Below, one piece after another: positions 5,140-32,000 of a stretch of DNA of 32,000 nucleotides. Every line of letters starts with the position of its first letter. The stretch's first letter is position 1. This stretch comes from Sideroxydans lithotrophicus ES-1 (GTDB lineage Bacteria; Pseudomonadota; Gammaproteobacteria; Burkholderiales; Gallionellaceae), in contig NC_013959.1 of the NCBI RefSeq assembly GCF_000025705.1, positions 827,063-859,062 of the forward strand. Direction: 5' to 3'. The position numbers were made by a program, and so were the translations under genes. The notes beneath the pieces are model-generated. The model made no database searches and was not told where the DNA came from. It saw only the letters and a program-made list of their open reading frames with translations.

Positions 5140-5154
5140 ATGTTTTTTTATGCT

Positions 5155-8173: not shown

Positions 8174-8428
8174 ATGAAGCTGATCGAACAGGACGAGAAG
8201 GATGATTTCCTGGCGGTGTTGAAACGATTCCAGCTTTCCCCGGAAGATTTTGACCTGGCGGAGACCGACACCACAGACTCCAAAACCGATGAGATATTCG
8301 CGCTCACCGGGTTTGTCGTGATCACGCAAAAATCTACCAACCTGAAAGCCCAATACCCAATTGGGGACGGGTCCAGATGGGTTGAGGAATTCGAGAGGGA
8401 TGTTGAAAAAAACCTGTTTGGTAGATGA
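8174..8428 (+). CDS. Hypothetical small acidic protein
   Basis: 84 aa, with AAAGG about 12 nt upstream of the ATG. It starts 51 bp after the previous gene on the same strand. No family recognised. Confidence 0.45.
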   Translation: MKLIEQDEKDDFLAVLKRFQLSPEDFDLAETDTTDSKTDEIFALTGFVVITQKSTNLKAQYPIGDGSRWVEEFERDVEKNLFGR

Positions 8429-8637
8429 CGGCTAGATGCTGTCGGTTGGCCCGTTAATACTAAACGTCTCAAACTCGGCCATTGCTGCCTTTCAGGCCCT
8501 ACTGACTGAGCGGCCGGTTTTGAACCCTAAACAGACTCCACAGTGACTACGAAATCCGGAGCGATTCAATCAATCGGTTAGCCTAAACAACAACCGCACA
8601 GCCAAAATGAAAACTCACGGGAAGGTAGCGCTTAAGG

Positions 8638-9507: not shown

Positions 9508-9545
9508 TGTTCCTACTTTAAGTCATGTAAATTTAGTTGGTCAGT

Positions 9546-11294: not shown

Positions 11295-11642
11295 TTGCGT
11301 CCTAATTTTGAGAATCTAAAGGTCGCAAATATAAACCATTATTTGCAATAGTCATATCGCTAGTTTTCGAGGGAAATAGGGCTCCCATCTTTGGTCAAAA
11401 GCCAAATAAATTCCCATGGACGAAGTGACCTCGCAGGCCGAGAAACACGACCGTCGGGTTTCAAGCTGGTGGAGGCTTAGCTCAATCAAAATACAGCCCT
11501 TGAGGCTGCCTAAGATGTGGACGTCTTGTTTGCCTGTTTGCGAGACTCAATTGCCGTCTTAATTCGAAACACCTAGTCCACCGGGTTTAGTGGACGACCA
11601 CTCCACTGCATTGCAACCGTCACCGGCCGAAATCCGAAGACT

Positions 11643-11669
11643 GCAATCAGGCTGAAGCAGCCGGATTGC
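11643..11669 (-). terminator. Imperfect GC hairpin downstream of the nucleotidyltransferase gene
   Basis: gcaatc-a-ggctg-aag-cagcc-g-gattgc. On the minus strand it is followed by AGTCTTCGGATTTCGG, which is only moderately T-rich. It lies 118 bp after the stop at 11787. Confidence 0.3.
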
Positions 11670-11786
11670 CTTGATAACTTGAATGGCAACTCTGGCCGAC
11701 TAACTGCCATGCATTGCACGTGGCGCGCCATCTCGCATAGGTTAGCTTCTACCAAAGTACCCGAGCTGATGTGTTATGCGCGGCAA

Positions 11787-12806
11787 CTAGCTTTTGCCGT
11801 CAAGCAAGGCAAAGGTGTTGTCGTCGCGCAAACTTTCCGGAAATACATGAATTTTGTCGAAGCTCAATTGCGGTAGTCGCTCCTGGAGCAGCTGGTAAAC
11901 AGCGCGGGCTTGCGCCAAGTCGCGCGGTTTTTTCATGGGGTTTCGATCCTCTTTTTGGCTCAACCATGTTTTGTAGAAGACGAAGGCGCGCGGATCGACC
12001 GTTACCATTTCGGCCATGCTGCCGTTTGTGCCGACTACAACTTGGCGGAATTTCGGGGAACTCAGTAGCCAATCCATGTTCTTGATTTTGGTTGCCCAAA
12101 AATCATCCGGGTTGGCGATTAATTGCGGATGCTCCTTGTCGTCAAAGAACGATGCGGGGCGGCGTTTGATCAGGTCGATCATATAGCCTTGTGAATTGGC
12201 TGCGCTGTATTCCTGATCTTTCAGCAGCTCAAAGGTCGGATCAATCTTTTTTAGCACGCCGATCAATCCGTACTTGTTGAAATGCTCGTCGCCATCTGCG
12301 GCAAGGGTGATTCGTTTGCGCGAATCCCACAGTAGATCCATATCTGTGGTTGCCGTCACGTCACCGTTGAATCGAACGCCCGCCTGCGTTTCATAGGCGT
12401 AGAGCGCATTAGTTCCGATCACCATGAAATGGTCCTGCAATCCCGTACGCCTGATTTCTTCCAGCAAGCCGACCACAACATTCGGCGTGCGTCCTACCCG
12501 TAAAGCGGCATTAAGTCGGGTATGCGTGGCGATGGCGGCACTGAGTTGTTTCAGGGTTTGCTCGGAAGAGGCTTTGCCTTTCTTGAATTCCTCCAGAATT
12601 CTTTCGGTCTCCGGCGTCCTCACTCCAAGGCTCTTAGCTTGCCTTGCAGCGTATTCGCGATATAGATAGTCGCGACCTTTGACGGTTTTCCAGTACATGC
12701 TGCCACGATAATTCTGCGCACGACGTTCCGCTGCAAGCCAGGATTTTCTGGCCTGTTCGGCATCGATGTATTGCCGGATCTGGTTTTCGTCGAGAGCGGT
12801 GAACAT
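11787..12806 (-). CDS. Nucleotidyltransferase-fold protein (GSU2403-like family, from memory)
   Basis: 339 aa. NTase-type motif pair VIGTNALYAYE ... TATTDMDLLWD (G[ST]..., DxD). No obvious partner gene on either side. Confidence 0.6.
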   Translation of the reverse strand: MFTALDENQIRQYIDAEQARKSWLAAERRAQNYRGSMYWKTVKGRDYLYREYAARQAKSLGVRTPETERILEEFKKGKASSEQTLKQLSAAIATHTRLNAALRVGRTPNVVVGLLEEIRRTGLQDHFMVIGTNALYAYETQAGVRFNGDVTATTDMDLLWDSRKRITLAADGDEHFNKYGLIGVLKKIDPTFELLKDQEYSAANSQGYMIDLIKRRPASFFDDKEHPQLIANPDDFWATKIKNMDWLLSSPKFRQVVVGTNGSMAEMVTVDPRAFVFYKTWLSQKEDRNPMKKPRDLAQARAVYQLLQERLPQLSFDKIHVFPESLRDDNTFALLDGKS

Positions 12807-13052
12807 AGCGGTTAGAGGAAATATTGTGTTTTGGCAACTTTATCCTCTAATTCCATATAAGTCAAAGTATTATATTATGTGATCGTGGTTGCACTTTTGT
12901 GTATGTCGCCAGTTTTTGTGGGGAGAGTGCAGAAATTGGGCGTATCTAAAACGTCCGGTAGCCGCACATGGCAGATATGCCCACAGCCACTGAAACCGGC
13001 CGATATGGTCAAATAGCAGCTACGCTTAGCTCGCAGCGCGGCTATCCAGTCA

Positions 13053-14093: not shown

Positions 14094-17217
<3,124 letters not shown>

Positions 17218-18850: not shown

Positions 18851-20329
18851 ATGAAACTATTCGATCTGCGCGGCGGCGTGCATCCGGAAGGTCGCAAGGA
18901 CTTGTCGGCCGAGCGCCATATTCGCGCATTGCCGTTGCCGAAAAAACTGTTCGTGCCGTTGCAGCAACATATCGGTGCACCTGCCACGCCGGTGGTGAAA
19001 GTGGGTGACCATGTATTGAAAGGACAGCTGCTTGCGGCAGCGCAAGGCACCGTGTCGTCATCGGTGCATGCACCGACCTCCGGCGTGATCGTCGCGATGG
19101 GCGATTTCCCTGCACCGCATCCATCCGGCTTGCCGGTGCCGACCATCACGCTGGAAAGCGACGGTGAAGACAAATGGATCGCGACCGAGTCGGTGGACGA
19201 TCCGTTCGCGCTCTCGCCCGAGAACATCGCCGCGCGTGTCGCGGTGGCCGGCATCGTCGGCCTGGGCGGCGCGACTTTCCCTGCGGCACTCAAACTGAAC
19301 CTGAGCCGCAGCAGCGGCGTGCAGACGCTGATCATGAACGGCGGCGAATGCGAACCCTACCTGACCTGCGACGACCGCATCATGCGCGAGCGGGCAGGGC
19401 AGATCGTCGAAGGCATACGCCTGATCGCGATTGCGGTTGCCGCCAAGGAAGTGCTGGTCGGCATCGAGGACAACAAGCCGGAAGCCATCGCTGCCATGCA
19501 AGCTGCGGCGGAAGGCAGTGCGGTCAAAGTCGTGACGATGCCGAGCATGTATCCGATGGGTTCGGAGAAGCAGATCATCCAGGTGCTGACCGGCAAGGAG
19601 ATCCCCGCGGGTGGACGTCCCGCCGACATCGGTGTGCTGGTGCACAACGTCGCCACCGCGTTCGCCGTGCAGCAGGCGATCCGGTACGGGCGGCCATTGA
19701 TCTCGCGCATCGTCACCGTCAGCGGCGGGGCGATCAAGACAGCGTGCAATGTGGAAGCCTTGGTCGGCACGCCGGTACAGGAATTGATCGATTTTGCAGA
19801 TGGCTATGTGCAACCCGCTGCTCGTCTGGTGCTGGGCGGGCCGATGATGGGGCAGCAATTCACCAATACCGAGGTGCCCGTGGTCAAAGGCACCAGCGGT
19901 GTGCTGGCGCTGACGGCGAAAGAGATCGGGCAGGCGGAGGCATCGCCGTGCATCCGTTGTTCGACCTGCGTGCGTGCGTGTCCGGTCGGTCTGTTGCCGC
20001 TGGAGATGGCTTCGCGCATCCGCGTTTCCGATCTTGCCGGTGCAGTCGCATTCGGGCTGAAGGATTGCATCGCCTGCGGCTCCTGCTCGTATGTCTGCCC
20101 GGCGCATATCCCGCTGGTGCACTACTTCAACTACGCCAAGGGCGACCTGGCCGGACAGGAGCGTGCCAAGCTGAAACAGGAAGCCACCAAAAAACTGGCC
20201 GATGCACGCAACGAACGCATCGCCCGTATCGAACGCGAACGGGCCGAGGCCGCGGCAAAACGCAAGGCCGCACGCGAGGCGAAAGAACGGGCCGCGAAAG
20301 AGGCGGCGGCGAAGGTGGAGGTCGTATGA
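18851..20329 (+). CDS. rnfC: Rnf electron transport complex subunit C
   Basis: 492 aa, AGGAGG RBS. NADH/FMN-binding region GLGGATFP; CIRCSTCVRACP and CIACGSCSYVCP; Lys/Ala/Glu-rich C-terminal tail. Confidence 0.93.
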   Translation: MKLFDLRGGVHPEGRKDLSAERHIRALPLPKKLFVPLQQHIGAPATPVVKVGDHVLKGQLLAAAQGTVSSSVHAPTSGVIVAMGDFPAPHPSGLPVPTITLESDGEDKWIATESVDDPFALSPENIAARVAVAGIVGLGGATFPAALKLNLSRSSGVQTLIMNGGECEPYLTCDDRIMRERAGQIVEGIRLIAIAVAAKEVLVGIEDNKPEAIAAMQAAAEGSAVKVVTMPSMYPMGSEKQIIQVLTGKEIPAGGRPADIGVLVHNVATAFAVQQAIRYGRPLISRIVTVSGGAIKTACNVEALVGTPVQELIDFADGYVQPAARLVLGGPMMGQQFTNTEVPVVKGTSGVLALTAKEIGQAEASPCIRCSTCVRACPVGLLPLEMASRIRVSDLAGAVAFGLKDCIACGSCSYVCPAHIPLVHYFNYAKGDLAGQERAKLKQEATKKLADARNERIARIERERAEAAAKRKAAREAKERAAKEAAAKVEVV

Positions 20330-20507: not shown

Positions 20508-21575
20508 ATGAACCCCATCGCACACTCCCCGCACGCACATGCTCCAGTCTCCATCGGCAAGGTGATGGGCACGGTATTGATCGCGCTCACTCCGGCCACA
20601 CTGTTCGGATTCTGGCTGTATGGCTGGCCTGCGATCAACCTGTGGGCAGTATCGCTGATCGCCGCCATCGTCGGCGAAGCTGTGGTCGTGAATCTGCAGG
20701 GACGCGCCGTGCGACCGGTGCTGATGGATGGTTCCGGCGTGCTGACCGCATGGTTGCTGGCAGTCTCGTTGCCGCCGTTCGCACCGTGGTGGATCGCCGC
20801 GCTGGGCAGCCTGTTCGCGGTCGTCATCGGCAAACAGGTGTTTGGCGGTCTGGGGCAGAACGTGTTCAACCCGGCGATGGCGGCGCGCGTGATGCTGCTG
20901 ATCTCGTTCCCGCTGGAGATGACTTCCTGGGTCGCGCCTGCGCCGCTGGGTTCGGCACATGCACCCGGTTGGCTGGACAGTTTGCGCATCACATTCATGA
21001 GCCAGCCGCTGGACGGCATGGCCAGCGCTTCGCTGCTCGGCCATGTGAAGACCGAATTCACGCGCGGTGTCGGACTGGATCAGGCGCTGGCCGGTTACTA
21101 CGCGCCGCTCGATGCGCTGTGGGGCAGCCGAGCCGGCAGCATGGGTGAGACGGCGGCGCTGTTGTTGCTGCTTGGTGGGCTGTATCTCATTGCCCGCCGC
21201 ATCATCACCTGGCATGCGCCTGTCGCCATGCTGCTCGGTGTGGCCGTGCCCGCTTTGATCTTCAATGCGATCAATGCCAACCATTACGCCGGGCCGATGT
21301 ACCACTTGCTGAGCGGCGGCCTGATCTTGGGGGCGTTCTTCATCGTCACCGATCCGGTGACCTCGCCGAATACCGCCTTGGGGCAGTTCATCTTCGGCTT
21401 CGGCTGCGGCGTGATGACCTGGATCATCCGCACTTGGGGCGGCTATCCGGAGGGTGTGGCGTTCGCCGTGATGCTGATGAACACGTTGACGCCGCTGATC
21501 GACCAGTACGTCAAGCCGCGCATCTATGGGCGCGACCGTAAGGGTGTGGCGTTGTCCGTGAACAAGGGGTCGTGA
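20508..21575 (+). CDS. rnfD: Rnf electron transport complex subunit D
   Basis: 355 aa polytopic membrane protein, AAGGAGG RBS. Motifs: GKQVFGGLGQNVFNPAM, FIVTDPVTSP. Confidence 0.93.
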   Translation: MNPIAHSPHAHAPVSIGKVMGTVLIALTPATLFGFWLYGWPAINLWAVSLIAAIVGEAVVVNLQGRAVRPVLMDGSGVLTAWLLAVSLPPFAPWWIAALGSLFAVVIGKQVFGGLGQNVFNPAMAARVMLLISFPLEMTSWVAPAPLGSAHAPGWLDSLRITFMSQPLDGMASASLLGHVKTEFTRGVGLDQALAGYYAPLDALWGSRAGSMGETAALLLLLGGLYLIARRIITWHAPVAMLLGVAVPALIFNAINANHYAGPMYHLLSGGLILGAFFIVTDPVTSPNTALGQFIFGFGCGVMTWIIRTWGGYPEGVAFAVMLMNTLTPLIDQYVKPRIYGRDRKGVALSVNKGS

Positions 21576-21576
21576 G

Positions 21577-22206
21577 ATGAAGCTCGAAGAGTTGCGCGGC
21601 AAATTGAGTTACCAGGGGATATTGCTCGGCGGGGTGGCGTTGCTCACCAGCGGGGCGCTCGCGATCGCGGCCCACCTCACCGCTGCCGACATCAAGGCGG
21701 CGGAGACTGCGGACCTCAAGCAATCGCTGACGCAGGTGCTGCCGGGTGAATACGACAACGATCTGCTCAAGGACACCGTCACTTTGCCGGGCAAGGATGG
21801 TGATGTGCTGGTCTATCGCGCGCGCCGCCAGGGCAAAGTGGAAGCGGTGGTGTATCGCATGATCGGACACGGCTATGCCGGGGCGCTGGTGTGCGTGATG
21901 GGGGTGTCGCGCGAGGGCAGGATACTGGGGGTGCGCGTGATCAAGCATGCAGAGACGCCGGGGCTGGGTGACAAGATCGATCCGGCCAAGAGCAACTGGA
22001 TCCATTCCTTCGAGGGCAAGTGGCTGGGCGATCCCGTGCCGGACAAATGGGCGGTGAAAAAAGATGGCGGTGTGTTCGACCAGTTCGCCGGTGCGACCAT
22101 CACCCCGCGCGGCGTGGTCAAGGCAGTGAAGGAAGGGCTGGAGTTCTTTGATGCGAATCGGACTGCATTGCTCGATGGGGCTACAGTGGAAGGAATCAAG
22201 CCATGA
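21577..22206 (+). CDS. rnfG: Rnf electron transport complex subunit G
   Basis: 209 aa. It starts 1 nt after the rnfD stop. N-terminal TM; FMN-attachment region FDQFAGATITPRGV. Confidence 0.9.
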   Translation: MKLEELRGKLSYQGILLGGVALLTSGALAIAAHLTAADIKAAETADLKQSLTQVLPGEYDNDLLKDTVTLPGKDGDVLVYRARRQGKVEAVVYRMIGHGYAGALVCVMGVSREGRILGVRVIKHAETPGLGDKIDPAKSNWIHSFEGKWLGDPVPDKWAVKKDGGVFDQFAGATITPRGVVKAVKEGLEFFDANRTALLDGATVEGIKP

Positions 22207-22346: not shown

Positions 22347-22374
22347 AAGTTTGCAATCGCGGGGGGTATTTGAT

Positions 22375-23055
22375 ATGAGCGGGAGTTACGCACGCATCAC
22401 CAGGGATGGACTTTGGGACAACAACATCGTTTTCGCGCAGATACTCGGCATGTGCCCGACCATGGCGGTGACCAGCAGTGCCACCAACGGTCTCGGCATG
22501 GGATTGGCAACCACGGCGGTGTTGCTGGCATCGAACGCGATCATCTCGGCGGCGCGCGACCTGATCAGTCCGGATGTGCGCATCCCGGTGTATATCGTGC
22601 TGATCGCCACGCTGGTCACGTTGGTGGATGTGAGCCTGAACGCATGGGCGCATGACCTCTACAAGGTGCTCGGCTTGTACATCGCGCTGATCGTGGCGAA
22701 CTGCGCGGTGCTGGGACGTGCCGAAGCGTTCGCCGCCAAGGTCGGCGTGGGCGAGGCGGCGATGGATGGCTTGATGATGGGGCTCGGGTTCACTTTGGCG
22801 CTGACCACCATCGGCGGTATCCGCGAAGTGCTGGGGGCGGGAACGTTGTTCGCCAATGCACATCTGCTGCTGGGACCTGCCTTCGCATTCCTGGAGACGA
22901 CGGTGATACCCGATTACAAAGGCTACCTGTTGATGATCCTTCCTCCGGGCGGTTTCATGGTGCTTGGTTTCCTGCTGGCAGCCCGCCGCGTCATCGAGCG
23001 TCGCCGTGCCGAGCGTGCTGCAGTTGCAGCGGTGCCTGAAGCGGTCGCGGGTTAG
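22375..23055 (+). CDS. rnfE: Rnf electron transport complex subunit E
   Basis: The track ORF starts at 22351. I prefer the ATG at 22375 (MSGSYARITRDGLWDNNIVFAQILGMCP). Motif: LGLYIALIVANCAVLGRAEAFA. Confidence 0.9.
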   Translation: MSGSYARITRDGLWDNNIVFAQILGMCPTMAVTSSATNGLGMGLATTAVLLASNAIISAARDLISPDVRIPVYIVLIATLVTLVDVSLNAWAHDLYKVLGLYIALIVANCAVLGRAEAFAAKVGVGEAAMDGLMMGLGFTLALTTIGGIREVLGAGTLFANAHLLLGPAFAFLETTVIPDYKGYLLMILPPGGFMVLGFLLAARRVIERRRAERAAVAAVPEAVAG

Positions 23056-23063: not shown

Positions 23064-23345
23064 ATGCAAATCGGAGTCGCCTATTCTGAACCTGCGCAGC
23101 AGCTCTGGCTGCGTATCGAAGTCCCTGACGAAGCCACCGTGCAGGCCGCCATCGAACAATCCGGGATACTGAAAAAATTCCCGGATATCGATTTGAGTAC
23201 ATGTGCAGTCGGTATCTTCGGTAAAATGGCGCAGCTGGATGCGCAGCTCAAGCCCGGCGACCGCGTGGAGATATATCGCGCCATCACCGCGGATCCAGCC
23301 ACAGTGCCGCGCCGCCGCATCGAGGGCGAAGACGACGAAGACTAA
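23064..23345 (+). CDS. rnfH: RnfH family ubiquitin-like protein
   Basis: 93 aa, AGGAGG RBS, 8 nt after rnfE. Motifs: QIGVAYSEPAQQLWLRIEVP, LKPGDRVEIYR. Confidence 0.85.
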   Translation: MQIGVAYSEPAQQLWLRIEVPDEATVQAAIEQSGILKKFPDIDLSTCAVGIFGKMAQLDAQLKPGDRVEIYRAITADPATVPRRRIEGEDDED

Positions 23346-23366: not shown

Positions 23367-24605
23367 ATGGAATCCTCCGCATCTTTGGAACTCGCGAAAC
23401 ACACGTTACTGGTTTTTGGCATCATCCTCGGCATCGGAACTTTCTCCGGATTCCTGGCACGCATACTGCGCGTACCCGATGTGGTCGTCTTCCTGCTGGT
23501 CGGCATGCTGATCGGCCCAGGCATGCTGGGCTTTGTGGACATCAAGGCGGACTCTACCGTCAACCAGCTGATCCTGATCTTCGGTTCGAGCTACATCCTG
23601 TTCGACGGCGGCGCTTCGATCCGGCTCAAGGTGCTGAAAGAGGTATGGGTCACCATCGTGGTGCTCGCCACCATCGGTGTGCTGATCTCTGCCGCCATCA
23701 CCGGTGTGGCGGCTTATTACCTGTTGAATGTCCCCGTCATCGTGGCGCTGCTGCTTGGCGCGACGATAGCTTCCACCGATCCGGCCACGCTGGTGCCGGT
23801 GTTCAAACAGATCAGGATCAAGGATCGCGTTGCCCAGACGGTGATGAGCGAGTCGGCATTCAACGATGCGATGGGTGCCATCATCACATTCACGGTGCTT
23901 CATGTTGCGATGGGTGCCGGCGAATTTTCCGTGACCGATTCACTCATCGACCTGGTCAAACAATCGCTGTTCGGTATCGTGATAGGCGGTGTGCTGGGGT
24001 ATCTGGCTGCCTTCATGATCTCGCACGAGAAGTTCGGCTTCCTTGCCGAATACGCGCCGGTGGTCACCCTGATGGCCGTGATCGGCGCCTACATGAGCGC
24101 AGACGGATTGCATTCCAGCGGTTTCATGGCGGTGTTCGTGTTCGGCATCATGCTCGGCAATCAGGAGTCGCTCGGCTTCCAGCGCGGCCATCACGATGAG
24201 GCTATCCTTGAGGATTTCATCCTGACCACCGCGCTGATCATGCGCATGTTCATCTTCATTCTGCTAGGCGCACAGGTCGATTTCGGCCTGATGAACAAGT
24301 ACTTGTATGCGGGTGTGGCAGTGGTGACGATCTTCATGCTGGTGGGGCGCCCGGCCACCGTGTTCCTGTGCGCATTGCCGGATCGCCGCGCCAAGTGGAC
24401 TCTTAAAGAGATGCTGTTCATGTGCTGGACGCGCGAGACCGGCGTCATCCCCGGTGCACTGGCCGGCATGCTGGTTGGCATGAAAGCGCCCGGCGCACAG
24501 ATCATCGCTTCGGTCACTTTCATCGCCATCCTGATGACCATCCTGATCCAGGCTACGACCACCAAATGGCTGGCGAAGAAACTCGATCTGCTGGTCGAGA
24601 AATAG
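23367..24605 (+). CDS. Cation/proton antiporter (Na+/H+ exchanger family, CPA1-like)
   Basis: 412 aa with about 11-12 hydrophobic segments. Motifs: ATIASTDPATLVPVF, SESAFNDAMGAI. It starts 21 nt after the rnfH stop and has an AAGGA RBS. Confidence 0.8.
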   Translation: MESSASLELAKHTLLVFGIILGIGTFSGFLARILRVPDVVVFLLVGMLIGPGMLGFVDIKADSTVNQLILIFGSSYILFDGGASIRLKVLKEVWVTIVVLATIGVLISAAITGVAAYYLLNVPVIVALLLGATIASTDPATLVPVFKQIRIKDRVAQTVMSESAFNDAMGAIITFTVLHVAMGAGEFSVTDSLIDLVKQSLFGIVIGGVLGYLAAFMISHEKFGFLAEYAPVVTLMAVIGAYMSADGLHSSGFMAVFVFGIMLGNQESLGFQRGHHDEAILEDFILTTALIMRMFIFILLGAQVDFGLMNKYLYAGVAVVTIFMLVGRPATVFLCALPDRRAKWTLKEMLFMCWTRETGVIPGALAGMLVGMKAPGAQIIASVTFIAILMTILIQATTTKWLAKKLDLLVEK

Positions 24606-24876: not shown

Positions 24877-26169
24877 ATGGACACTTCTTACGCAATCTAT
24901 CTGCTGTTCTTTGCCTTCGTGCTGCTCTTCTACCTGCGCAGCCGACTCAAGGGCGAGAGTTCGTCCGTCGAAGTGCTCAATGAATGCCTCGAAGCTGGAT
25001 TGACGGAACCCTCGACCCTGCATCCCGAGATCGACCCCAGGCTTTGTCTGGGGGCAGGCAGCTGTGTCGCAGCCTGCCCGGAAGGTGCGCTCGGCATGAT
25101 CAATGGCAAAGGAACGCTGATCAACCCGACCGTCTGCATCGGGCATGGTGCGTGCGAGGCGGCCTGTCCGCACGATGCGATCAAGCTGGTCTTCGGCACT
25201 GAACGACGCGGCATGGATATTCCGCAAGTCGATCCGCATTTCGAGACCAATGTGCCCGGCATCTTCATTGCGGGCGAACTCGGCGGCATGGGGTTGCTGC
25301 ACAAGGCGGCAGGGCAAGGCAGCCGGGCAATTGAATATATCGCCGGACTCAAGGGCAACAAGAATCCCTACGATGTGGTCATCATCGGCGCGGGACCGGC
25401 CGGCCTGGCGGCGACGCTGGGAGCGATCGAACGCAAGTTACGTTATGTCACCATCGAGCAGGAAACTTCACTCGGCGGAGCCATGTTTAAGTACCCGCGC
25501 CACAAGATCGTCATGACTTCTCCTGCGGAATTGCCAATCGTCGGAAAAATGCAATTCAAGGAAGTGAGCAAGGAAGCACTGCTGGAGTTCTGGCACGGCG
25601 TCATTGCGCAGACCGGCATGCAGCTGAATTACGAAGAGCGCATGGAGGACATCACCAAAACCGACAATGGCTTTGTCGTCAAAACCACCAAAGGCTCATA
25701 TGAAACCCGTGCCGTGTTGCTTGCCATAGGACGTCGCGGTACACCGCGCAAACTGGGCGTGCCCGGCGAAGAGCTGCCGAAAGTTGTGTACCATCTGGTC
25801 GATCCAGAACAATATTGCAACCAGCATGTCATGGTTGTGGGCGGTGGTGACAGCGCGCTCGAGGCCGCGATCGCCATTGCCGAACAACCGGGAACAACCG
25901 TCACGCTCTCCTATCGGAGCGAGGCATTCGGGCGCGGCAAAACGAAGAATCGCGAACGCTTGAAGGAGATGACGGACAAGGGGCGGATCACGGTACTGCT
26001 GAAATCGAACGTGAAACAGGTCAGCAAAGGCAAGATCCTGCTGGAACAGGAAAGCAGGATGATCGAGATGCCCAACGATGCGGTCATCGTGTGCGCAGGC
26101 GGCATCCTGCCCACACCGTTCCTCAAGCAGATCGGCGTGATGGTCGAAACGAAATTCGGCACCGCATAG
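24877..26169 (+). CDS. Membrane-anchored ferredoxin-domain / TrxR-like FAD-NAD(P)H oxidoreductase fusion
   Basis: The ORF begins at 24862; the ATG at 24877 (MDTSYAIYLLFFAFVLLFYL, TM helix) is also possible. Two Fe-S motifs: CLGAGSCVAACP and CIGHGACEAACP. FAD Rossmann motif DVVIIGAGPAGLAA; NAD(P)H Rossmann motif VMVVGGGDSALEAA. There is no redox CxxC between them. Confidence 0.75.
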   Translation: MDTSYAIYLLFFAFVLLFYLRSRLKGESSSVEVLNECLEAGLTEPSTLHPEIDPRLCLGAGSCVAACPEGALGMINGKGTLINPTVCIGHGACEAACPHDAIKLVFGTERRGMDIPQVDPHFETNVPGIFIAGELGGMGLLHKAAGQGSRAIEYIAGLKGNKNPYDVVIIGAGPAGLAATLGAIERKLRYVTIEQETSLGGAMFKYPRHKIVMTSPAELPIVGKMQFKEVSKEALLEFWHGVIAQTGMQLNYEERMEDITKTDNGFVVKTTKGSYETRAVLLAIGRRGTPRKLGVPGEELPKVVYHLVDPEQYCNQHVMVVGGGDSALEAAIAIAEQPGTTVTLSYRSEAFGRGKTKNRERLKEMTDKGRITVLLKSNVKQVSKGKILLEQESRMIEMPNDAVIVCAGGILPTPFLKQIGVMVETKFGTA

Positions 26170-26209: not shown

Positions 26210-28444
26210 TCAGAAATCCCAGCGCAGGCCAAGTGAATAGAAGACTCGGCTGGTATCGCTGTTGCTGATCGGGCCGCTGAATTTCAGCTTCTGGTAGCCC
26301 AAACTGGTGTCGACAGTGAATTGCTGTTTGAAGCGATATGAACCGCGCAGCAACGGCATGATCTGTTTGGTCGCACCACCGAATTGGTCTTTGAAGCTTG
26401 ACCACTGCAAGGTCGTATCCACCAGCCAGTTGCTGCCGACCGGCGTGTGATTGTAGAGAAAGATGGAGTTGCCATTTACGTAGCTGCTGCTGCTGAAGGT
26501 GAAGCTGCCAGACCAGACATCTCCCGGGTTGTGCAGGCCGCTGCCGATAAGTTGTGCAGTCATGCTCCTTTCCAGCCCCCGCGGCGGCTGGGCGACAATA
26601 CAACCTTGAGGTGTTGTCGTGCCGGAACATTGAATTGGCAACTGGGTAACTGGATCTATGGCTGGATTCAGGGTTTGGCCACTGCTTCCCAAACCGGTTG
26701 TATTCGTAAGACGGAAATCGCCGCCGATCTGCCACTTTTCGTGCAGCGTGTGCGTGATGCCGAACTGCCCTATATTGGAAATTGCGGTGCGTGCCAATGC
26801 CAGATCGCGCAAGCTGTCGACCGACATGGTTTGCAGCAAAGTGCCGATCGATGAAGTCGTGGCGCCATTCAGTGCATTGCGGATACTCAAGGACGGGGTC
26901 TTGATGTGATCCAGCAAGATGCTTAGCGTGGTGTTGGGCAACAGGGAAATTCCTCTGGCCGTTCCCGTGAATTCGGCTGCATTCACTGCTTTGAAATACG
27001 TATCGTAATCAAGCAGGCCATATGCGTTCCGCTTGTCGTCAAAATACCGGAACTCCGAACCCACTGCCCGCCGGTCGAGCGTACCTTCCACCGTTTGGTT
27101 GATCCCGTAAAACGAGAATGCCCCTTTGTCCATGCTCGCACCAAAGAATCTCGGCTTACTACCCTGCATGGATTCCGACAGCGCTCCCGCAACACCGTTT
27201 ACGCGCAACTCCTGCGGCGCGCCATACGATGCCGCCACGCCGTCGAAACGCCCCAGCACTCCGGCGCCCGTGGCTGACTGCCGCCCCACCCGCATCAGGT
27301 AATTGCTGGTACGCCCCTTGATCTCGCCGTAGGCGGTATATACCTTGTTCTGGCCGGGCTGGCCGGAAAGAAAGTTGCGGGTGTCCACGTCGCTGAATAC
27401 CAGACGCTTGTCGTTGTTTTCGCTGCGGTAACGTTCGGAGGCGTCCACAGTGCTGATCAGCATGGATTGGTCGACCTGCGACAGTGAGCTGGTTGTTGTC
27501 TGTCCATTGAACGTGTTGGTGGTCGAGATGCTGCTATTGCCGTGATAGTAGGTTGACGAGATGCTGCCGAAAGTCGTAATGACGGTCTTCTGGCTTTGCA
27601 CGGCGCCGGCAACAGTCAGTTGCGGGCTCGTGCCAGGCTTCCCGGAAAGTTCGAGCAGGCGCTGCGCCACGCGTTCCGCGCCGGCATCTTTCGGATAAAG
27701 TTTCAGGTACAGGTCATACTCGACTTTTGCCCTGTCGATCTGGCCGGCGCGTTGGCGTGCCACCCCGACCCATTCCTGGCCGATTTGCGTGTACTCGTTT
27801 GGCGGCAGCAGCAGTAGCTTGTTCAGCAGGCCCACTGCGTCATCGTTCTTCCCGGCTGCCAACGCATCGCGTCCCTGCACCAGCAGGGCGCGCGCTTCCT
27901 TGTTTATCCTGACCTCGGCGGCGACTTCTTCAGGAGTCAAATTGGCGCGGGTTGCGGGCTTTCTTTCCGGTTCGATCATGGGCAAGGAAGGTAGTTGTTC
28001 CCGGGCTGCCGGCCGTTTTTCCGGACGGATAGTGATCAGGAAACTCCGGTTGTCGCTGCCCGCGGCGATGCTGAATTCCGCTGCGTGTTCGAACTCGATG
28101 ACCAGCCGCGGCCTGGTTGCCTGATCGCGCGTAGTCACGGTAAAGCCCGGAATAAGCGGGGAAGGTGGGGACCTGCGCACTTCATTGTCCTGCCAAGTCT
28201 CGGTGAAGGTCGCGTCTTGTACTCGGTCGTAATAGATTTGCAGTGTTTTGCCGCGGTGGGCGGGAAAATGGCGCAGGTAATGCACGGGCCCAGACAGGTT
28301 GATCGTGGCGACGATGCCCTCCTTTTCATAATCGAGACTGATGTCTTCCAGCGGCGGCTGGGCAAGCGCGCTGAATGAAATTGCAGATAGCAACAGGAGT
28401 CCTGGCAATTCCCGATACAGTCTGAAAGTAAGCTTGGGAGTCAT
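26210..28444 (-). CDS. Large outer-membrane protein: signal peptide + AMIN-like domain + TPR + C-terminal beta-barrel (putative porin of the cytochrome cluster)
   Basis: The ATG at 28444 is preceded by GGAGAA (MTPKLTFRLYRELPGLLLLSAISFSALA). N-terminal segment: IVATINLSGPVHY...RPRLVIEFEH. TPR-like segment: AKVEYDLYLKLYPKDAGAERVAQRLLEL. The last ~470 aa have alternating beta-strand-like, Gly/Ser/Thr/Asn/Tyr-rich sequence and end in the OMP signature SLGLRWDF. Confidence 0.7.
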   Translation of the reverse strand: MTPKLTFRLYRELPGLLLLSAISFSALAQPPLEDISLDYEKEGIVATINLSGPVHYLRHFPAHRGKTLQIYYDRVQDATFTETWQDNEVRRSPPSPLIPGFTVTTRDQATRPRLVIEFEHAAEFSIAAGSDNRSFLITIRPEKRPAAREQLPSLPMIEPERKPATRANLTPEEVAAEVRINKEARALLVQGRDALAAGKNDDAVGLLNKLLLLPPNEYTQIGQEWVGVARQRAGQIDRAKVEYDLYLKLYPKDAGAERVAQRLLELSGKPGTSPQLTVAGAVQSQKTVITTFGSISSTYYHGNSSISTTNTFNGQTTTSSLSQVDQSMLISTVDASERYRSENNDKRLVFSDVDTRNFLSGQPGQNKVYTAYGEIKGRTSNYLMRVGRQSATGAGVLGRFDGVAASYGAPQELRVNGVAGALSESMQGSKPRFFGASMDKGAFSFYGINQTVEGTLDRRAVGSEFRYFDDKRNAYGLLDYDTYFKAVNAAEFTGTARGISLLPNTTLSILLDHIKTPSLSIRNALNGATTSSIGTLLQTMSVDSLRDLALARTAISNIGQFGITHTLHEKWQIGGDFRLTNTTGLGSSGQTLNPAIDPVTQLPIQCSGTTTPQGCIVAQPPRGLERSMTAQLIGSGLHNPGDVWSGSFTFSSSSYVNGNSIFLYNHTPVGSNWLVDTTLQWSSFKDQFGGATKQIMPLLRGSYRFKQQFTVDTSLGYQKLKFSGPISNSDTSRVFYSLGLRWDF

Positions 28445-28529
28445 TGCATTCTCCAGCCGGGTTACGGTTGCATATGTGCCAGTTGAGTGAAGCGACAGCT
28501 TCAGCAAATTGCGTAACAGCCAAAGGAAT

Positions 28530-28556
28530 GCCGCACGAATATTTCATTTGTGCGGC
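28530..28556 (-). other. Hairpin in the 127-bp spacer between the 18-haem cytochrome gene and the OMP gene
   Basis: The minus strand reads GCCGCAC-aaatgaaatattc-GTGCGGC, followed by ATTCCTTTGG. It may be a partial terminator or a processing site. Confidence 0.3.
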
Positions 28557-28571
28557 CATCCTTCCTGAGGA

Positions 28572-30146
28572 TCAGTTATCCCAGGACGTGTAGTTCAGCC
28601 TGTGGCAAGCAGTGCAGTCCTGGCTTGTGGTAGAGCGTTGGTGATTTCCCAGCGTCACCCTCTGTATATTTCCGAGATAGGCCGGCGCACTCGTGTCGTG
28701 GCAGGACTTGCAGATCGGCGAGACCTGGGCATGCAAGGTGGCTCCCGTTGCGACAGTGCCGGTGGCAAGATGGCACATTGCGCACGGCACTCCCGCGTTG
28801 AAGGGGATATGGTTAGCCGGCTCCGCTCCCAGTGCAGTTGTCCAGCTGGTGTAGTTGGGGGGCGTGTGGCAGGCAGTGCAGTCCTGGTTGGTAGTCGATC
28901 CCTGATGGCTACCCAGGGTTACCTTCGTTATGTTGCCCAGATAAGCCGGCGCACTCGTATCGTGGCAAGTCTTGCAGATCGGCGAGACCTGGGCATGCAA
29001 GGTGGCTCCCGTTGCGACAGTGCCAGATGCGAGATGGCACGTGGTGCACGGAGCTCCCGCATTGACGGGGATATGGTTGGCCGGCATTGTTCCCAGAGCT
29101 GTTGTCCAGCTCGTGTAATTGGGCGGTGTGTGGCAGGCAGTGCAGTCCTGAATGGCAGTCGAGCCCTGATGGTTGCCCAGTGTCACTTTCGTCATGTTTC
29201 CCAGATAGGCGGGCGAGTTCGTATCGTGACAAGTCTTGCAAGTTGGCGTGACCTGCGCATGCAGGGCGGCTCCGGTGATCCAGGTGGTTGGCGTCGGGTG
29301 GCAAGTGGCGCATGTCACTCCCGGATTAAACGGAATGTGATTGGCCGGCATGGCACCCATCGCACCCAGCCAGCTGACGGTGGTCGTGTGGCAGGTGATG
29401 CAGTCGTTGGTTGTCGCGACATGCCCGGCATTCTTTCCGGGCGCGTTGGAACCGTCGTGACAGCCCATGCAGACCCCTGCTGGAGACGGCCTGTCGTGAA
29501 TGAATGGAGCCGGGGTCCAGGTGTAAACGGTGTGGCACTCGTCGCAATTGAAGACATTCCTGTCCAGATAGGGCGTTGTTTGATGGTTCGCCGGTTTATA
29601 AAACTGGTTGGAGCCCTGCACGTGGCAGCCGGCGCTGGCGCAGGTATGGGGCGCCACACCGACATGGTTGAAACCGGCCGGATGCCAGACATATGACCGG
29701 TGGCAGTTATCGCAGGAACCGGTCAGCTTCAATCCTGAATTATGGTCTGCCGGACGGCCAGTCGTTATTCGCCCGTTATGGCAGGTCGCGCATTGTCCCG
29801 GCTTCGCTTCCCCATGGTTATACCGTGCTCCGAGGAACGTATATGTGTTGAAGTGGCAGGAATCGCAGGGTGCGTCGGTCACGATGTGCGTGGTGGGCTT
29901 AGGTGTCGCTACAACCCGCTTTCCCAGCGCATGACACGCGGAACAGTCCTTCGGCGTACCCTTGAACACGCCGCCGATGTGGCAACTTTCGCAGGCTGTC
30001 GTGGCGTGGGCGCCTTTTAGCTGGAATCCGGTGGCATCGTGGTTGAACTTTCGGCTGACCGACGGCTTGGCTGCCATCGCGTGCAATGAAAACACCATCA
30101 ACATCAAGGCAAACGCAGAGCACAGTGCTTGTCCAGGTCGTTGCAT
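28572..30146 (-). CDS. Multihaem c-type cytochrome, 17 CxxCH + 1 CxxxxCH (18 predicted haems), Thr/Ala/Gly/Asn/Pro-rich
   Basis: 524 aa. Signal peptide MQRPGQALCSAFALMLMVFSLHAMA. I counted CxxCH at aa 52, 68, 94, 119, 145, 201, 226, 249, 279, 303, 335, 367, 391, 423, 455, 479 and 511, plus CASAGCH at 169-175. GGAGGTGG RBS. Confidence 0.9.
   Translation of the reverse strand: MQRPGQALCSAFALMLMVFSLHAMAAKPSVSRKFNHDATGFQLKGAHATTACESCHIGGVFKGTPKDCSACHALGKRVVATPKPTTHIVTDAPCDSCHFNTYTFLGARYNHGEAKPGQCATCHNGRITTGRPADHNSGLKLTGSCDNCHRSYVWHPAGFNHVGVAPHTCASAGCHVQGSNQFYKPANHQTTPYLDRNVFNCDECHTVYTWTPAPFIHDRPSPAGVCMGCHDGSNAPGKNAGHVATTNDCITCHTTTVSWLGAMGAMPANHIPFNPGVTCATCHPTPTTWITGAALHAQVTPTCKTCHDTNSPAYLGNMTKVTLGNHQGSTAIQDCTACHTPPNYTSWTTALGTMPANHIPVNAGAPCTTCHLASGTVATGATLHAQVSPICKTCHDTSAPAYLGNITKVTLGSHQGSTTNQDCTACHTPPNYTSWTTALGAEPANHIPFNAGVPCAMCHLATGTVATGATLHAQVSPICKSCHDTSAPAYLGNIQRVTLGNHQRSTTSQDCTACHRLNYTSWDN
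28575..29366 (-). repeat. Three in-frame 264-bp (88-aa) tandem repeats, each encoding a trihaem module
   Basis: The marker agtgcagtcc recurs at 28611, 28875 and 29139 (spacing exactly 264 bp). Protein unit: PANHIPxNAGxPCxxCH...TGATLHAQVSPICKxCHDTSAPAYLGNIxxVTLGxHQxSTTxQDCTACH. Confidence 0.9.
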
Positions 30147-30188
30147 GATCCACCTCCATCAATTTCGGTTATTTCAAAAACCTCCCGA

Positions 30189-31772
30189 TCATTCATCGCG
30201 CGTGTTTAACACGCCGACTCTTATCTCTTTCCAATCGTTGCCTATGTGGCAACGCTCACAATGTTCGCCGAAGCTGCCGTTATGCACGTCGTCCTTGTCG
30301 TGACAGCTGTCGCAAGCAGTGGGTGCAACCACTTTCTTTTCCATCGGTGCGGAGTGGCAGACGTAACATTTGCCTGCAATTTCCTTGTGCGGTCCATCGA
30401 GCTTGAAACTGGTCTTGTCGTGGTCGAAATCCCAGGCCTTCCAGTCGCGCGCGTTGTGGCAGGTCTCGCATTCCGTCCCCAGCTTGCGCTTGTGCACATC
30501 GTCCTTGGTGTGGCACGACCGGCAATCCGTCTTGACCCCCTTGAACATTGGCGTGGCATGGCATTTCTTGCACGCCACCAGCAAGTGACGCCCGAGCAGC
30601 GGGAAAGTCGACATCAAGCTGTGGTCGAAAGTGGTCTTCGTCCACGCAATCTCGCTATGACAAGATTCGCATTTATCTCCCTCCTGGCCTTTGTGCTTGT
30701 CGTCCTTTTTGTGGCATGCGTCGCATTTGGCGGGCAATTTCTGCTTGTACAGGTCGCCCGTATGGCAACTCACGCATTTCGTCTGTCTGTGTTTTCCCAG
30801 TAGCGGGTATTTGGTTTCCTTGTCGTGATCGAAAATAATTTCCTTCCAGTTGCGTACGGTGTGACAGGATTCGCACTTCGTTCCGAATTTGCCCTTGTGC
30901 GCCTTGATTCCCTCTTTTCTGTGGCACGCGTTGCACAGCGTCGGTGTTTTCTTGAACTTGTCGTTGCTGTGGCATTTTTCGCACTTCACGTCCCGGTGTT
31001 TGCCCAGTAGCGGGAATTTGGTCTTGTCGTGATCGAAGCGGATTTCCTTCCAGCTCTTTTCGATGTGACACGATTCGCATTTCGGCCCCAATTTTCCCTT
31101 GTGCTTGTCGTTCTTCTTGTGACATGAGTTGCATGATGTCGGCGTCTCCTTGAACTTGTCGTTGTTGTGGCATTTTTCGCACTTCACGTCCCGGTGTTTG
31201 CCCAGTAGCGGAAACCTGGTCTTGTCGTGGTCGAACTGGATGTCTTTCCAGCTCTTGTCGATGTGACATGATTCGCATTTGGATCCCAATTTTCCTTTGT
31301 GTTTGTCATCCTTCTTGTGGCACGCGTCGCAACTGGTGGGCGCATCCCGGTATTTCTTTCCCGCCTTGTGGCAGCCGGTACATTTCACTTTCGGGTTGAG
31401 GTGGGCCCCCTTCAGCGGATAGTCGGTTTGGTCGTGATCGAACTTGCCACGGTCAAACTCGGCAATCTTTGCATCGCGACCCTTATGATCCGTATGGCAT
31501 TCCCTGCACTGTTTCGAGGGGTCCAACCGTCCGTGATAACCGCGTTTTTCGTCCAGATCCTTGTGTATCTCCTTGTGGCAATCGGCACACAGTGCCGACT
31601 GGGCTGCCTTGTCGAATTTCTTGTGGCACTTCTCGCAATCATCTTCCAGCTTCGCATGGCCTTCGATGACGTTGCCCGGCATCACCATAATGTCCGCTTG
31701 TGTTTTCATGGGCAGCGCCATCAGGGCGCTGCCCAGGACGATCGAGCGCAGGATCGCCGTTATCTGGTACAT
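30189..31772 (-). CDS. Multihaem c-type cytochrome, 21 CxxCH, polymer of seven cytochrome c7-like trihaem modules (Lys/Asp/His-rich)
   Basis: The maximal ORF extends to 31817 (GTG). I prefer the ATG at 31772 (MYQITAILRSIVLGSALMALPMKTQA signal peptide), just after the upstream stop at 31780. CxxCH at aa 61, 77, 104, 146, 163, 181, 213, 229, 247, 279, 295, 315, 348, 365, 383, 416, 432, 450, 484, 502 and 520 (numbered from 31817). Recurrent FDHDKTxFPLLGKH distal-His motif. Confidence 0.9.
   Translation of the reverse strand: MYQITAILRSIVLGSALMALPMKTQADIMVMPGNVIEGHAKLEDDCEKCHKKFDKAAQSALCADCHKEIHKDLDEKRGYHGRLDPSKQCRECHTDHKGRDAKIAEFDRGKFDHDQTDYPLKGAHLNPKVKCTGCHKAGKKYRDAPTSCDACHKKDDKHKGKLGSKCESCHIDKSWKDIQFDHDKTRFPLLGKHRDVKCEKCHNNDKFKETPTSCNSCHKKNDKHKGKLGPKCESCHIEKSWKEIRFDHDKTKFPLLGKHRDVKCEKCHSNDKFKKTPTLCNACHRKEGIKAHKGKFGTKCESCHTVRNWKEIIFDHDKETKYPLLGKHRQTKCVSCHTGDLYKQKLPAKCDACHKKDDKHKGQEGDKCESCHSEIAWTKTTFDHSLMSTFPLLGRHLLVACKKCHATPMFKGVKTDCRSCHTKDDVHKRKLGTECETCHNARDWKAWDFDHDKTSFKLDGPHKEIAGKCYVCHSAPMEKKVVAPTACDSCHDKDDVHNGSFGEHCERCHIGNDWKEIRVGVLNTRDE
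30912..31307 (-). repeat. Two near-identical in-frame 198-bp (66-aa) tandem units inside the 21-haem gene
   Basis: gtggcatttttcgcacttcacgtcccggtgtttgcccagtagcgg occurs at 30969 and at 31167 (198 bp apart). The units encode DKHKGKLGSKCESCHIDKSWKDIQFDHDKTRFPLLGKHRDVKCEKCHNNDKFKETPTSCNSCH and DKHKGKLGPKCESCHIEKSWKEIRFDHDKTKFPLLGKHRDVKCEKCHSNDKFKKTPTLCNACH. Confidence 0.9.
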
Positions 31773-31779
31773 CCCGACT

Positions 31780-32000
31780 TCAATAGGCATGTACCGCGTA
31801 AACATGGTAGAGCGCACTGAATACCATCATGTAAACCAGCGGAATGTGGAAGATGTGCCACCACGAAAACATGCGCTCGTAGGTTCCGAATTGCGCCACA
31901 TTCCGCATTGCCTTGAGATAGGACTCGATTGATTCTCGATAATCGTGCACTTTTTTTTCCATGTCCGCGCGTTGCGCCTCGCTGTAGTGTTGGGTCTTGG
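31780..32000 (-). CDS. Membrane protein, C-terminal fragment (N-terminus beyond the window); first gene of the cytochrome cluster
   Basis: The frame stays open upstream of the listed Met to the window edge (KTQHYSEAQRAD-MEKKVHDY...). It ends with a His-rich hydrophobic helix, MFSWWHIFHIPLVYMMVFSALYHVYAVHAY. The stop lies 7 nt before the preferred start of the 21-haem gene. Confidence 0.55.
   Translation of the reverse strand, partial: KTQHYSEAQRADMEKKVHDYRESIESYLKAMRNVAQFGTYERMFSWWHIFHIPLVYMMVFSALYHVYAVHAY

Follow-up and report, generated by a model that had tools for sequence, protein, structure and literature searches.

The window analysed here is a stretch of 32,000 nt from Sideroxydans lithotrophicus ES-1 (NC_013959.1, positions 827,063 to 859,062 of the forward strand), and our subject is the gene cluster at its right-hand end. 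Four co-oriented genes lie there on the minus strand, in the order inner-membrane protein (IMP, a fragment in this window), 21-haem cytochrome, 18-haem cytochrome and outer-membrane protein (OMP), separated by gaps of 7, 42 and 127 nt (Table 1). By sequence, this is copy 1 (cluster 1) of the porin-cytochrome system PCC3, Slit_0867-0870. We think it fairly likely that PCC3 copy 1 is best explained as an electron wire across the cell envelope. A neighbouring gene that we call oxR is conserved alongside the cluster, and the PCC3 unit probably comprises five genes rather than four.

Gene content and identity of the cluster

The definition of PCC3 (He et al. 2017, Front Microbiol 8:1584) draws on ES-1, Leptothrix cholodnii and L. 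ochracea, and it combines a porin with two multihaem cytochromes, one extracellular and one periplasmic, and a conserved IMP. Slit_0867-0870 agrees with that definition in gene content, IMP motifs, cytochrome composition and identity with the type locus, and the OMP sequence matches a S. lithotrophicus protein at 100% identity. The literature calls these genes PCC3 cluster 1 and gives the cytochromes 17 (or 18) and 21 haem sites; a survey of 103 Gallionellaceae genomes, which found PCC3 in 59% of Sideroxydans genomes, also presented an AlphaFold model of the "21/18 heme complex of S. lithotrophicus ES-1" (Hoover et al. 2023, mSystems 8:e00038-23). The locus is therefore already known: it has been published and characterised by bioinformatics only, and nothing about the locus itself is new. 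A preliminary description of the window had mentioned a purely bioinformatic PCC3 proposal that this locus would fit. The statement was accurate, and the finding is a correct rediscovery, since Slit_0867-0870 is among the examples on which PCC3 was defined; the four genes, their strand and order, the haem counts of 21 and 18, the 744-aa OMP and the gaps of about 7, 42 and 127 nt were all exact on recomputation. The fresh leads are the five-gene unit, a tripartite OMP, a multiple-of-three rule for haem number and an outer cytochrome that is not a lipoprotein, all of them hypotheses drawn from gene neighbourhood and from models of moderate confidence. We did not find the β-sandwich and tetratricopeptide repeat (TPR) domains of the OMP, an explicit multiple-of-three rule, the missing lipoprotein signal of the outer cytochrome or the oxR neighbour in He et al. 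2017 or Hoover et al. 2023.

Reading frames are intact throughout the cluster, and Sec-type signal peptides are present on all three complete proteins, that of the OMP ending between SALA and QPP. The open reading frame of the OMP, taken mechanically, reaches further upstream, to a TTG at 28507. We considered whether the cluster might be a silent or decaying paralogue and rejected this, given the intact frames and an orthologous 21/18-haem cluster, also with a convergent oxR, in a Sideroxydans metagenome-assembled genome (MAG; locus L007). A scan for sigma-70-like promoters and for terminator-like sites on the gene strand found none inside the cluster, which is weakly consistent with a single operon. 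The spacer that separates the 18-haem gene from the OMP gene is unusually long (127 nt) and holds a GC-rich hairpin that starts 8 nt past the stop codon of the former; it has no U-run and was not called by the terminator scan, and the structure z-score of the spacer, just -1.8, is only marginally better than for shuffled sequences. This hairpin might tune relative expression or mRNA stability. The 40-nt spacer 3′ of the OMP gene showed no notable structure.

Table 1. Features of the window; the PCC3 cluster and its candidate fifth gene come first, the surrounding genes last.
Feature	Position	Strand	Remarks
IMP gene, 3′ end (Slit_0870)	31780..32000	-	last 72 codons and stop; runs off the window
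21-haem c-type cytochrome (Slit_0869)	30189..31772	-	527 aa from ATG; 21 CXXCH
18-haem c-type cytochrome (Slit_0868)	28572..30146	-	524 aa; 17 CXXCH and 1 CX4CH (CASAGCH, residue 169)
Stem-loop in spacer between 18-haem gene and OMP gene	28522..28564	-	hairpin GGAAGGAU..GCCGCAC..GUGCGGC..AUUCCUU
OMP (Slit_0867)	26210..28444	-	744 aa from ATG; stop codon 26210-26212
OMP residues 32-140, predicted periplasmic all-β (sandwich-like) domain	28025..28351	-	AlphaFold2; block pLDDT 65-86
OMP residues 171-266, predicted five-helix short TPR-like domain	27647..27934	-	AlphaFold2 and Foldseek
OMP residues 288-744, predicted C-terminal β-barrel	26213..27583	-	AlphaFold2; 22 strand elements
oxR, candidate fifth component	24877..26169	+	convergent with OMP gene, 40-nt gap
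Na+/H+ exchanger	23367-24605		after rnf operon
RnfH	23064-23345	opposite to nifLA	rnf operon
RnfE	22351-23055	opposite to nifLA	rnf operon
RnfG	21577-22206	opposite to nifLA	rnf operon
RnfD	20508-21575	opposite to nifLA	rnf operon
RnfC	18851-20329	opposite to nifLA	rnf operon
NifL-like PAS histidine kinase	15640-17205	-	overlaps NifA-like gene by 41 nt
NifA-like GAF/sigma-54/HTH_8 activator	14094-15680	-
NTP_transf_8 nucleotidyltransferase	11787-12806	-	in low-GC island
AAA_15/AAA_21 (AbiEii/OLD-like) ATPase	9546-11294	-	in low-GC island
D12-class N6-adenine DNA methyltransferase	8638-9507	-	in low-GC island
MoxR-type AAA_3 ATPase	6051-7145	-	MoxR/DUF58/VWA cluster
DUF58 protein	5155-6438	-	MoxR/DUF58/VWA cluster
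VWA-domain protein	2477-3559	-	MoxR/DUF58/VWA cluster

Conservation of the cluster

One genome per species was scanned with the OMP alignment, which gave 80 loci; the genome of ES-1 itself is not among them. All 80 come from Gallionellaceae or unclassified betaproteobacterial MAGs, together with Ferrigenium and a Rugosibacter MAG. Wherever the contig permits, all 80 have the IMP gene first, then the charged cytochrome, one or two uncharged ones and the OMP. The same pattern was found in a Rubrivivax MAG, an Acidithiobacillales-like contig and other contigs, whose IMPs match the IMP profile at E values of 1e-65 to 1e-96. An exhaustive search with the OMP profile returned 1,728 clusters at 50% identity (E <=1e-3), 904 of them at E <=1e-30; many of these distant relatives share the TPR-plus-barrel core alone and have different, longer N-termini.

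A charged and an uncharged cytochrome

The two cytochromes differ strongly in composition, which the preliminary description had taken as a sign of two compartments. The 21-haem protein is charged (K 15.5%, D 9.4%, H 8.1%), whereas the 18-haem protein is nearly uncharged and also Pro-rich (T 13.5%, A 11.6%, G 8.2%, N 5.9%, E 0.8%). The contrast is real and is kept in relatives, where K+R+D+E amounts to about 37% in the charged class (62 proteins) and about 11% in the uncharged class (79 proteins, with T+A+G+N+S+P at about 52%), and the division into compartments agrees with the published periplasmic and extracellular assignments. PCC3 cytochromes have been described as haem-dense, repetitive and of low complexity, the outer one being rich in Thr, Ser, Ala and Gly (He et al. 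2017). At about 1% Cys and 2% His, only about 0.001 CXXCH motif is expected per 500 aa by our arithmetic, so the counts of 21 and 17 are not due to chance. A sequence search found no homologue of solved structure for either protein.

The 21-haem protein begins with the signal peptide MYQITAILRSIVLGSALMALPMKTQA, cleaved before D. Alignment of its modules resolves the protein, with its 21 CXXCH motifs, into seven tandem c7-type trihaem modules of about 67 aa with the pattern F-D-H..F-P-L-x-G-x-H..CxxCH..CxxCH..D-x-H..CxxCH, and Pfam assigns it to Cytochrome_C7 with 91 bits (E 4e-26), over the cut-off of 24.8. Each module has three extra conserved His, so that all haems are predicted to be bis-His. 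Among complete charged cytochromes of the relatives, 33 have 24 haems, nine have 27, eight have 21, four have 18 and one has 30; the number is always a multiple of three, and this also applies to the Rubrivivax and Acidithiobacillales-like loci. Uncharged cytochromes of the same set have 10-39 haems. Such regularity of the charged class beside the variability of the outer class fits a periplasmic strut of constrained length joined to an unconstrained outer part. A protein of 21-27 haems has been judged long enough to span the periplasm (Hoover et al. 2023), and from its sequence we predict that the 21-haem cytochrome is the periplasmic wire.

The same modular architecture would also suit an electron store. 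The cytochromes might act mainly as a periplasmic buffer, as proposed for poly-c7 proteins of the GSU1996 type, with transfer across the outer membrane not obligatory; the 21-haem protein shares its modular c7 build with GSU1996 and GSU2210, for which storage has been proposed, and the idea was raised by Hoover et al. 2023. However, the strict linkage to a large barrel and a surface-type uncharged cytochrome in every lineage examined is hard to explain on these terms, and the very low expression described below would provide little storage capacity. We regard a mainly capacitive role as improbable.

Nine haems of the 18-haem protein lie in its N-terminal part, and its C-terminal half is made up of three 88-aa trihaem repeats; this protein, too, matches Cytochrome_C7 above the cut-off (E 4.7e-25). 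Its signal peptide, MQRPGQALCSAFALMLMVFSLHAMA, cleaved before AKP, is of the signal peptidase I type without a lipobox, as in about 60 relatives. The 18-haem protein is therefore not a lipoprotein, unlike MtrC or OmcB. It is the predicted outer or extracellular cytochrome of the cluster. At one distant locus (L090:1222-9723), an uncharged cytochrome of 2,833 aa with 83 CXXCH and 6 CX3-4CH motifs (89 haems) is encoded directly upstream of an OMP relative; including it, the uncharged partners range from 10 to 89 haems.

A predicted tripartite outer-membrane protein

The OMP was modelled with AlphaFold2 using 39 relatives (mean predicted local distance difference test score, pLDDT, 78.6; mostly 85-97 in the barrel). 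The model suggests three parts, an N-terminal β domain, a short TPR-like domain and a C-terminal barrel of 22 strand elements; the Leptothrix PCC3 porin was likewise assigned 22 strands by PRED-TMBB (He et al. 2017). The barrel appears to carry a helical insert (residues 521-551) and a disordered loop (583-622). By standard barrel geometry, we calculate that 22 strands give a Cα radius of about 20 Å, about 85% of that of 26-strand MtrB. That width would admit a haem chain with a thin coat of protein, and by our arithmetic the two cytochromes have about 24 and 28 mature residues per haem. Foldseek matched the OMP only to generic barrels in the PDB (FimD usher, FadL, porins and siderophore receptors, with template modelling (TM) scores <=0.35), and MtrB was not within the top 50 matches. 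A sequence search against solved structures gave nothing meaningful, the weak matches being to antibody heavy chains (best E 0.0026).

When the N-terminal 290 residues were modelled on their own, they matched the CpoB/YbgF TPR domain and BamD (root-mean-square deviation 1.2-1.5 Å over about 85 residues). The TPR region also gave sub-threshold matches to Pfam TPR_9 and TPR_2 and a weak match to NCBIfam BamD, and it marks the start of the core that is conserved over the wider OMP family. The β domain was compared with the AMIN-like B2 domain of PilQ, but this assignment was dropped as too weak (Foldseek E 0.034, TM score 0.17/0.29; no Pfam hit). At the two Acidithiobacillales-like loci (L088:237-698 and L093:9490-9951), the β module is a separate gene of 153 aa just upstream of the OMP gene, which indicates that it is an independent module.

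A TPR scaffold joined to a barrel is also the plan of BcsC and PgaA, and the OMP could accordingly be a dedicated export and assembly pore, instead of the sheath of a static complex, that releases the uncharged cytochrome to the outside, where it would act freely or as a filament. The TPR-plus-barrel core is what the family conserves, and the outer cytochrome has no lipid anchor and varies greatly in length, up to the 2833 aa and 89 haems of L090. Yet the likeness to BcsC and PgaA in sequence or fold is limited to generic TPR and barrel features, and we know of no folded multihaem protein that traverses a pore of this type. We consider such an export function quite unlikely, and return below to a barrel in which cytochromes meet.

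The inner-membrane protein

The PCC3 IMP has been described as a protein of about 300 aa with five transmembrane helices, W-x3-H-x13-H on helices 3 and 5, and SGxxG on helix 4 (He et al. 2017). The fragment in the window ends in ...FSWWHIFHIPLVYMMVFSALYHVYAVHAY (the protein end is also given as ...WWHIFHIPLVYMMVFSALYHVYAVHAY) and contains W-x3-H-x13-H in its last transmembrane helix, the His-rich terminal helix of the preliminary description. It shares 76% identity with the C-terminal end of the L007 orthologue, which is full-length at 299 aa. The window itself holds the helix 5 motif only; both W-x3-H-x13-H motifs and SGTFG are found in the L007 orthologue and 28 relatives. Across the alignment of these 29 full-length proteins, the four His of the H-x13-H pairs (H86/H100, H278/H292) vary little or not at all, and the same is true of SGxxG. 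The hydropathy profile shows four clear helices in addition to the haem-binding helix at 82-100, and a cytoplasmic insert of about 135 aa is conserved between helices 4 and 5. Three full-length relatives had no Pfam match at E <=1, including Ferric_reduct (PF01794). The IMP profile gave weak matches to unrelated coiled-coil and designed proteins among solved structures (best E 0.1), and a search of a protein database with the 72-aa fragment returned short fragments only.

A conserved oxidoreductase gene next to the cluster

The gene oxR, presumably Slit_0866, lies just beyond the OMP gene and is convergent with it. In its product, an N-terminal transmembrane helix (residues 6-24) and then RSRLK precede a 2x[4Fe-4S] ferredoxin domain and a FAD/NAD(P)H domain of the YpdA/thioredoxin-reductase type. 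We counted its adjacency over the 48 Gallionellaceae loci with at least 7.5 kb of upstream sequence. An oxR homologue adjoins the PCC3-type cluster in 44 of these and none is found in the remaining 4. It is divergent and just upstream of the gene for the IMP at 43 loci; in the other, L007, a true orthologue with 21 and 18 haems, oxR is convergent 69 nt past the OMP gene, as in the window, and 89% identical to the window's copy. We found no mention of oxR in the PCC3 literature. The preliminary description's cluster of four genes stands as far as those genes go, while the unit itself is probably larger by one.

The association extends to five distant lineages, where oxR lies beside or near the cluster in three arrangements (L086, L087, L089, L091, L092 and L093). 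It is divergent from the IMP gene in the Rubrivivax MAG (L089), followed by genes for a 27-haem cytochrome, a 29-haem cytochrome and the OMP, and in the Acidithiobacillales-like L093, followed by genes for 21-haem and 12-haem cytochromes, the β domain and the OMP. The OMP gene is convergent with oxR in L087 and L092, where oxR is divergent from a CcmH-like gene, the IMP gene and genes for a 24-haem and an at least 12-haem cytochrome. L091 has the OMP gene, ccmABCDEFGHI and then oxR on one strand, and in L086 a frameshifted oxR lies about 9 kb upstream of the OMP gene. The distant full-length copies are 56-61% identical to the window's oxR, and the partial L086 copy 68% over 199 residues. Since oxR occupies three different positions and orientations, the adjacency has survived rearrangement. 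With at most three oxR copies in a 4-Mb genome, we calculate a chance of at most 1.5% that one falls within 10 kb. The sole informative distant locus without oxR, L090, also shows no IMP or charged cytochrome in view. Several distant lineages have a ccm operon or CcmH/CycH-like TPR genes in or next to the cluster (L091:3787-12043; L085:3431-5128; L087:15066-15728; L092:14631-15260; L086:12784-13221).

ES-1 has two oxR paralogues, P0136 and P0227, which are 75% identical, and two PCC3 clusters. P0227, on an ES-1-like Logan contig of 2,644 bp (L082), is flanked by sucC and by a tRNA gene that has a clean terminator hairpin, and no cluster is beside it. This is the "empty site" of the common Gallionellaceae arrangement of tRNA, oxR, PCC3 cluster and sucCD.

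These observations allow a different reading of the inner end of the system. In a five-gene PCC3, oxR and the di-haem-b IMP would form a split module resembling NADPH oxidase (NOX) and ferric reductases, which would pass electrons from NAD(P)H through the 39-haem wire to an extracellular acceptor and bypass quinone. The natural direction would be export, for instance under oxygen limitation or onto Fe(III) crusts, or the chain would be reversible only with very reducing donors. Besides the adjacency in 44 of 48 Gallionellaceae loci and five further lineages, which rearrangement has not broken, oxR provides a complete domain chain from NAD(P)H through FAD to Fe-S with an anchor facing the cytoplasm, the insert of about 135 aa in the IMP could dock such a partner, and the two paralogues match the two PCC3 clusters of ES-1 in number. 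E. coli MsrQ and the flavin reductase Fre are a described precedent for a two-component NOX-like system. The IMP motif was itself noted as that of the ferric-reductase/NOX domain (He et al. 2017). If true, this reading would account for the missing Fe(II) response and for PCC3 in many aerobes that are not metal oxidisers. On the other hand, part of the Gallionellaceae adjacency is plain inherited synteny, sucCD being conserved next door in 36 of 51 loci; the second ES-1 oxR, P0227, has no cluster beside it; and at L090 neither an IMP nor oxR is in view beside the OMP and its 89-haem cytochrome. The position of oxR in L091, last after ccmI, raises the possibility of a role in cytochrome maturation instead. 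Export of NAD(P)H electrons also seems wasteful for a lithoautotroph, and the partnership of oxR with the IMP is drawn from gene neighbourhood only. We put this reading forward tentatively and consider it rather doubtful as it stands.

A model for PCC3 copy 1

The trans-envelope wire that we favour can be laid out from the inner membrane outwards. The five-helix IMP would hold two b haems close to opposite faces of the membrane, with H86/H278 and H100/H292 of helices 3 and 5 as their ligands. At the periplasmic face it would pass electrons to or from the 21-haem cytochrome, a presumably rigid string of seven c7-type modules long enough to bridge the periplasm. The string and the 18-haem cytochrome would meet at the barrel of about 22 strands or within it, where the β-sandwich and TPR domains of the OMP probably dock the cytochromes or anchor the complex, and the 18-haem protein would carry the chain on to the cell surface. 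The conserved NAD(P)H/FAD/Fe-S neighbour suggests that the inner end may couple to a cytoplasmic reductant besides, or in place of, quinone. What the analysis establishes is the list of parts, with their motifs, modules, domains, strict synteny and identity; haem b in the IMP, the site of each cytochrome, passage through the barrel and electron flow are inferred.

Several points weigh against this model. Transcripts of the four genes lie at the 3rd-12th percentile in ES-1 on Fe(II)-citrate and at the 9th-27th on thiosulfate, and are lower on Fe(II) than on thiosulfate (log2 fold change -1.2 to -2.7). PCC3 copy 1 proteins were "largely not detected" in ES-1 proteomes on Fe(II)-citrate and three magnetites. 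The IMP matches neither a Pfam family nor a solved structure, so that only motifs argue for its haem b. The helical insert at 521-551 could plug the modelled barrel, and the outer cytochrome has neither a lipoprotein signal nor an evident secretion route. PCC3 is still termed functionally unverified in papers of 2025-2026, up to the middle of 2026, and no biochemical, genetic or structural test has been published, as the preliminary description had said of its characterisation.

The expression data also bear on the published model, which has PCC3 take up electrons from extracellular, mineral-bound or complexed Fe(II), with the IMP as a quinone-reactive cytochrome b that feeds the quinone pool (He et al. 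2017). Several observations suit it. The hosts are iron oxidisers, the 80 closest OMP relatives being from Gallionellaceae or unclassified betaproteobacterial MAGs; 59% of Sideroxydans genomes have PCC3, as do iron-oxidising Leptothrix; in Sideroxydans CL21 the copy 2 IMP increases during iron oxidation; and the di-haem-b motif resembles that of quinone-reactive cytochromes b (He et al. 2017). In ES-1, however, copy 1 decreases on Fe(II) and shows hardly any transcript or protein, and whereas MtoAB responds to magnetite there, PCC3 copy 1 does not. The preliminary description had listed expression independent of Fe(II) among the findings that would count against a conduit, and a link to Fe(II) is essentially absent for dissolved Fe(II) and magnetite, with low transcripts and proteins largely undetected. 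Neither oxidation nor reduction of metals is known for most PCC3 hosts (He et al. 2017), no quinone site is known, and by standard bioenergetics inward electron flow through a membrane-spanning haem pair would oppose the membrane potential, while Fe(II) offers little driving force towards quinone. Low and Fe(II)-decreased expression leaves a role of copy 1 in Fe(II) oxidation unsupported, while other donors or acceptors are possible. We find the published model possible but on balance doubtful. On current data we take copy 1 not to be the working Fe(II) oxidase of ES-1; within the wire model, we take it to be an accessory conduit that is used conditionally.

PCC3 is one of the commonest uncharacterised porin-cytochrome systems, with about 900-1,700 OMP clusters at 50% identity; most Sideroxydans have it, as do Leptothrix and many other Proteobacteria. 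Its chain of 39 or more haems is the best candidate for a bridge of the periplasm by a single protein, and its partner and the direction of its electrons bear on mineral oxidation, corrosion and bioelectrochemistry. The oxR neighbour and the periplasmic domains of the OMP offer concrete starting points for testing how either end of the wire is connected.

Genomic surroundings

Right beside the PCC3 cluster, from position 14094 onwards, nifLA-like genes, an rnf operon on the opposite strand and a Na+/H+ exchanger gene form a nitrogen-fixation electron-supply neighbourhood (Table 1). Further away, the region 7300-13000 has a low G+C content (0.47-0.50 against 0.60-0.66 around it) and holds genes for a DNA methyltransferase, an AbiEii/OLD-like ATPase and a nucleotidyltransferase; it looks like an acquired defence or mobile island. 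A MoxR/DUF58/VWA cluster occupies 2477-7145.

Comparison with known systems

The proposed wire follows the same logic as MtrCAB, MtoAB and PioAB, in which a periplasmic multihaem cytochrome (and in Mtr an outer one) is joined at an outer-membrane barrel. It is nonetheless a different system with no homology to them, as the preliminary description had maintained of the difference for Mtr, Mto, Pio and Cyc2. Membership of the MtrB/PioB family (PF11854) was rejected, the OMP giving no match at E <=0.1, and the cytochromes fall far under the cut-offs of the DmsE/MtrA (TIGR03508, 63.9 bits against 192.2) and OmcA/MtrC (TIGR03507, 39.7 against 209.3) families. Cyc2, a monohaem domain fused to a barrel, was rejected as well: the OMP contains no CXXCH and the cytochromes are separate genes. 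Compared with Mtr, PCC3 copy 1 has 21 and 18 haems instead of 10 and 10, its outer cytochrome is no lipoprotein, its barrel is predicted to have about 22 strands and two periplasmic domains, and its inner partner is a putative di-haem-b protein in place of CymA of the NapC/NirT type. The MtrB structure of 2020 reportedly has 26 strands and no periplasmic domains.

The 21-haem protein resembles the Geobacter poly-c7 proteins GSU1996, GSU0592 and GSU2210, which likewise carry tandem c7 trihaem domains on one chain, although it has no significant pairwise sequence match to the solved GSU1996. Geobacter poly-c7 proteins have four domains (12 haems) or nine (27 haems), with one His-Met haem per domain in GSU1996, whereas the modules of the 21-haem protein keep three extra His, which would make all haems bis-His, and its gene lies in an operon with a porin and an IMP. 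Porins and multihaem cytochromes are also encoded together in Geobacter OmbB-OmaB-OmcB and ExtABCD, in Uet of Ca. Tenderia and in PCC4. Outer cytochromes of Geobacter are lipoproteins. Membership of the Geobacter Pcc/Ext systems was rejected, since the hits to ExtN/ExtO and GSU2203 family models are weak. PCC4 has no outer cytochrome but an analogous five-helix IMP with two H-x13-H motifs, which has no significant overall sequence similarity to the PCC3 IMP (He et al. 2017). Finally, ferric-reductase-domain proteins (NOX/FRE and MsrQ-Fre) share with PCC3 the pattern of two H-x13-H pairs on two helices, and at PCC3 the gene for an NAD(P)H flavoprotein lies next door; the oxR flavoprotein differs from that of NOX in being of the YpdA/thioredoxin-reductase type with 2x[4Fe-4S] in place of a dehydrogenase domain of the FNR type.

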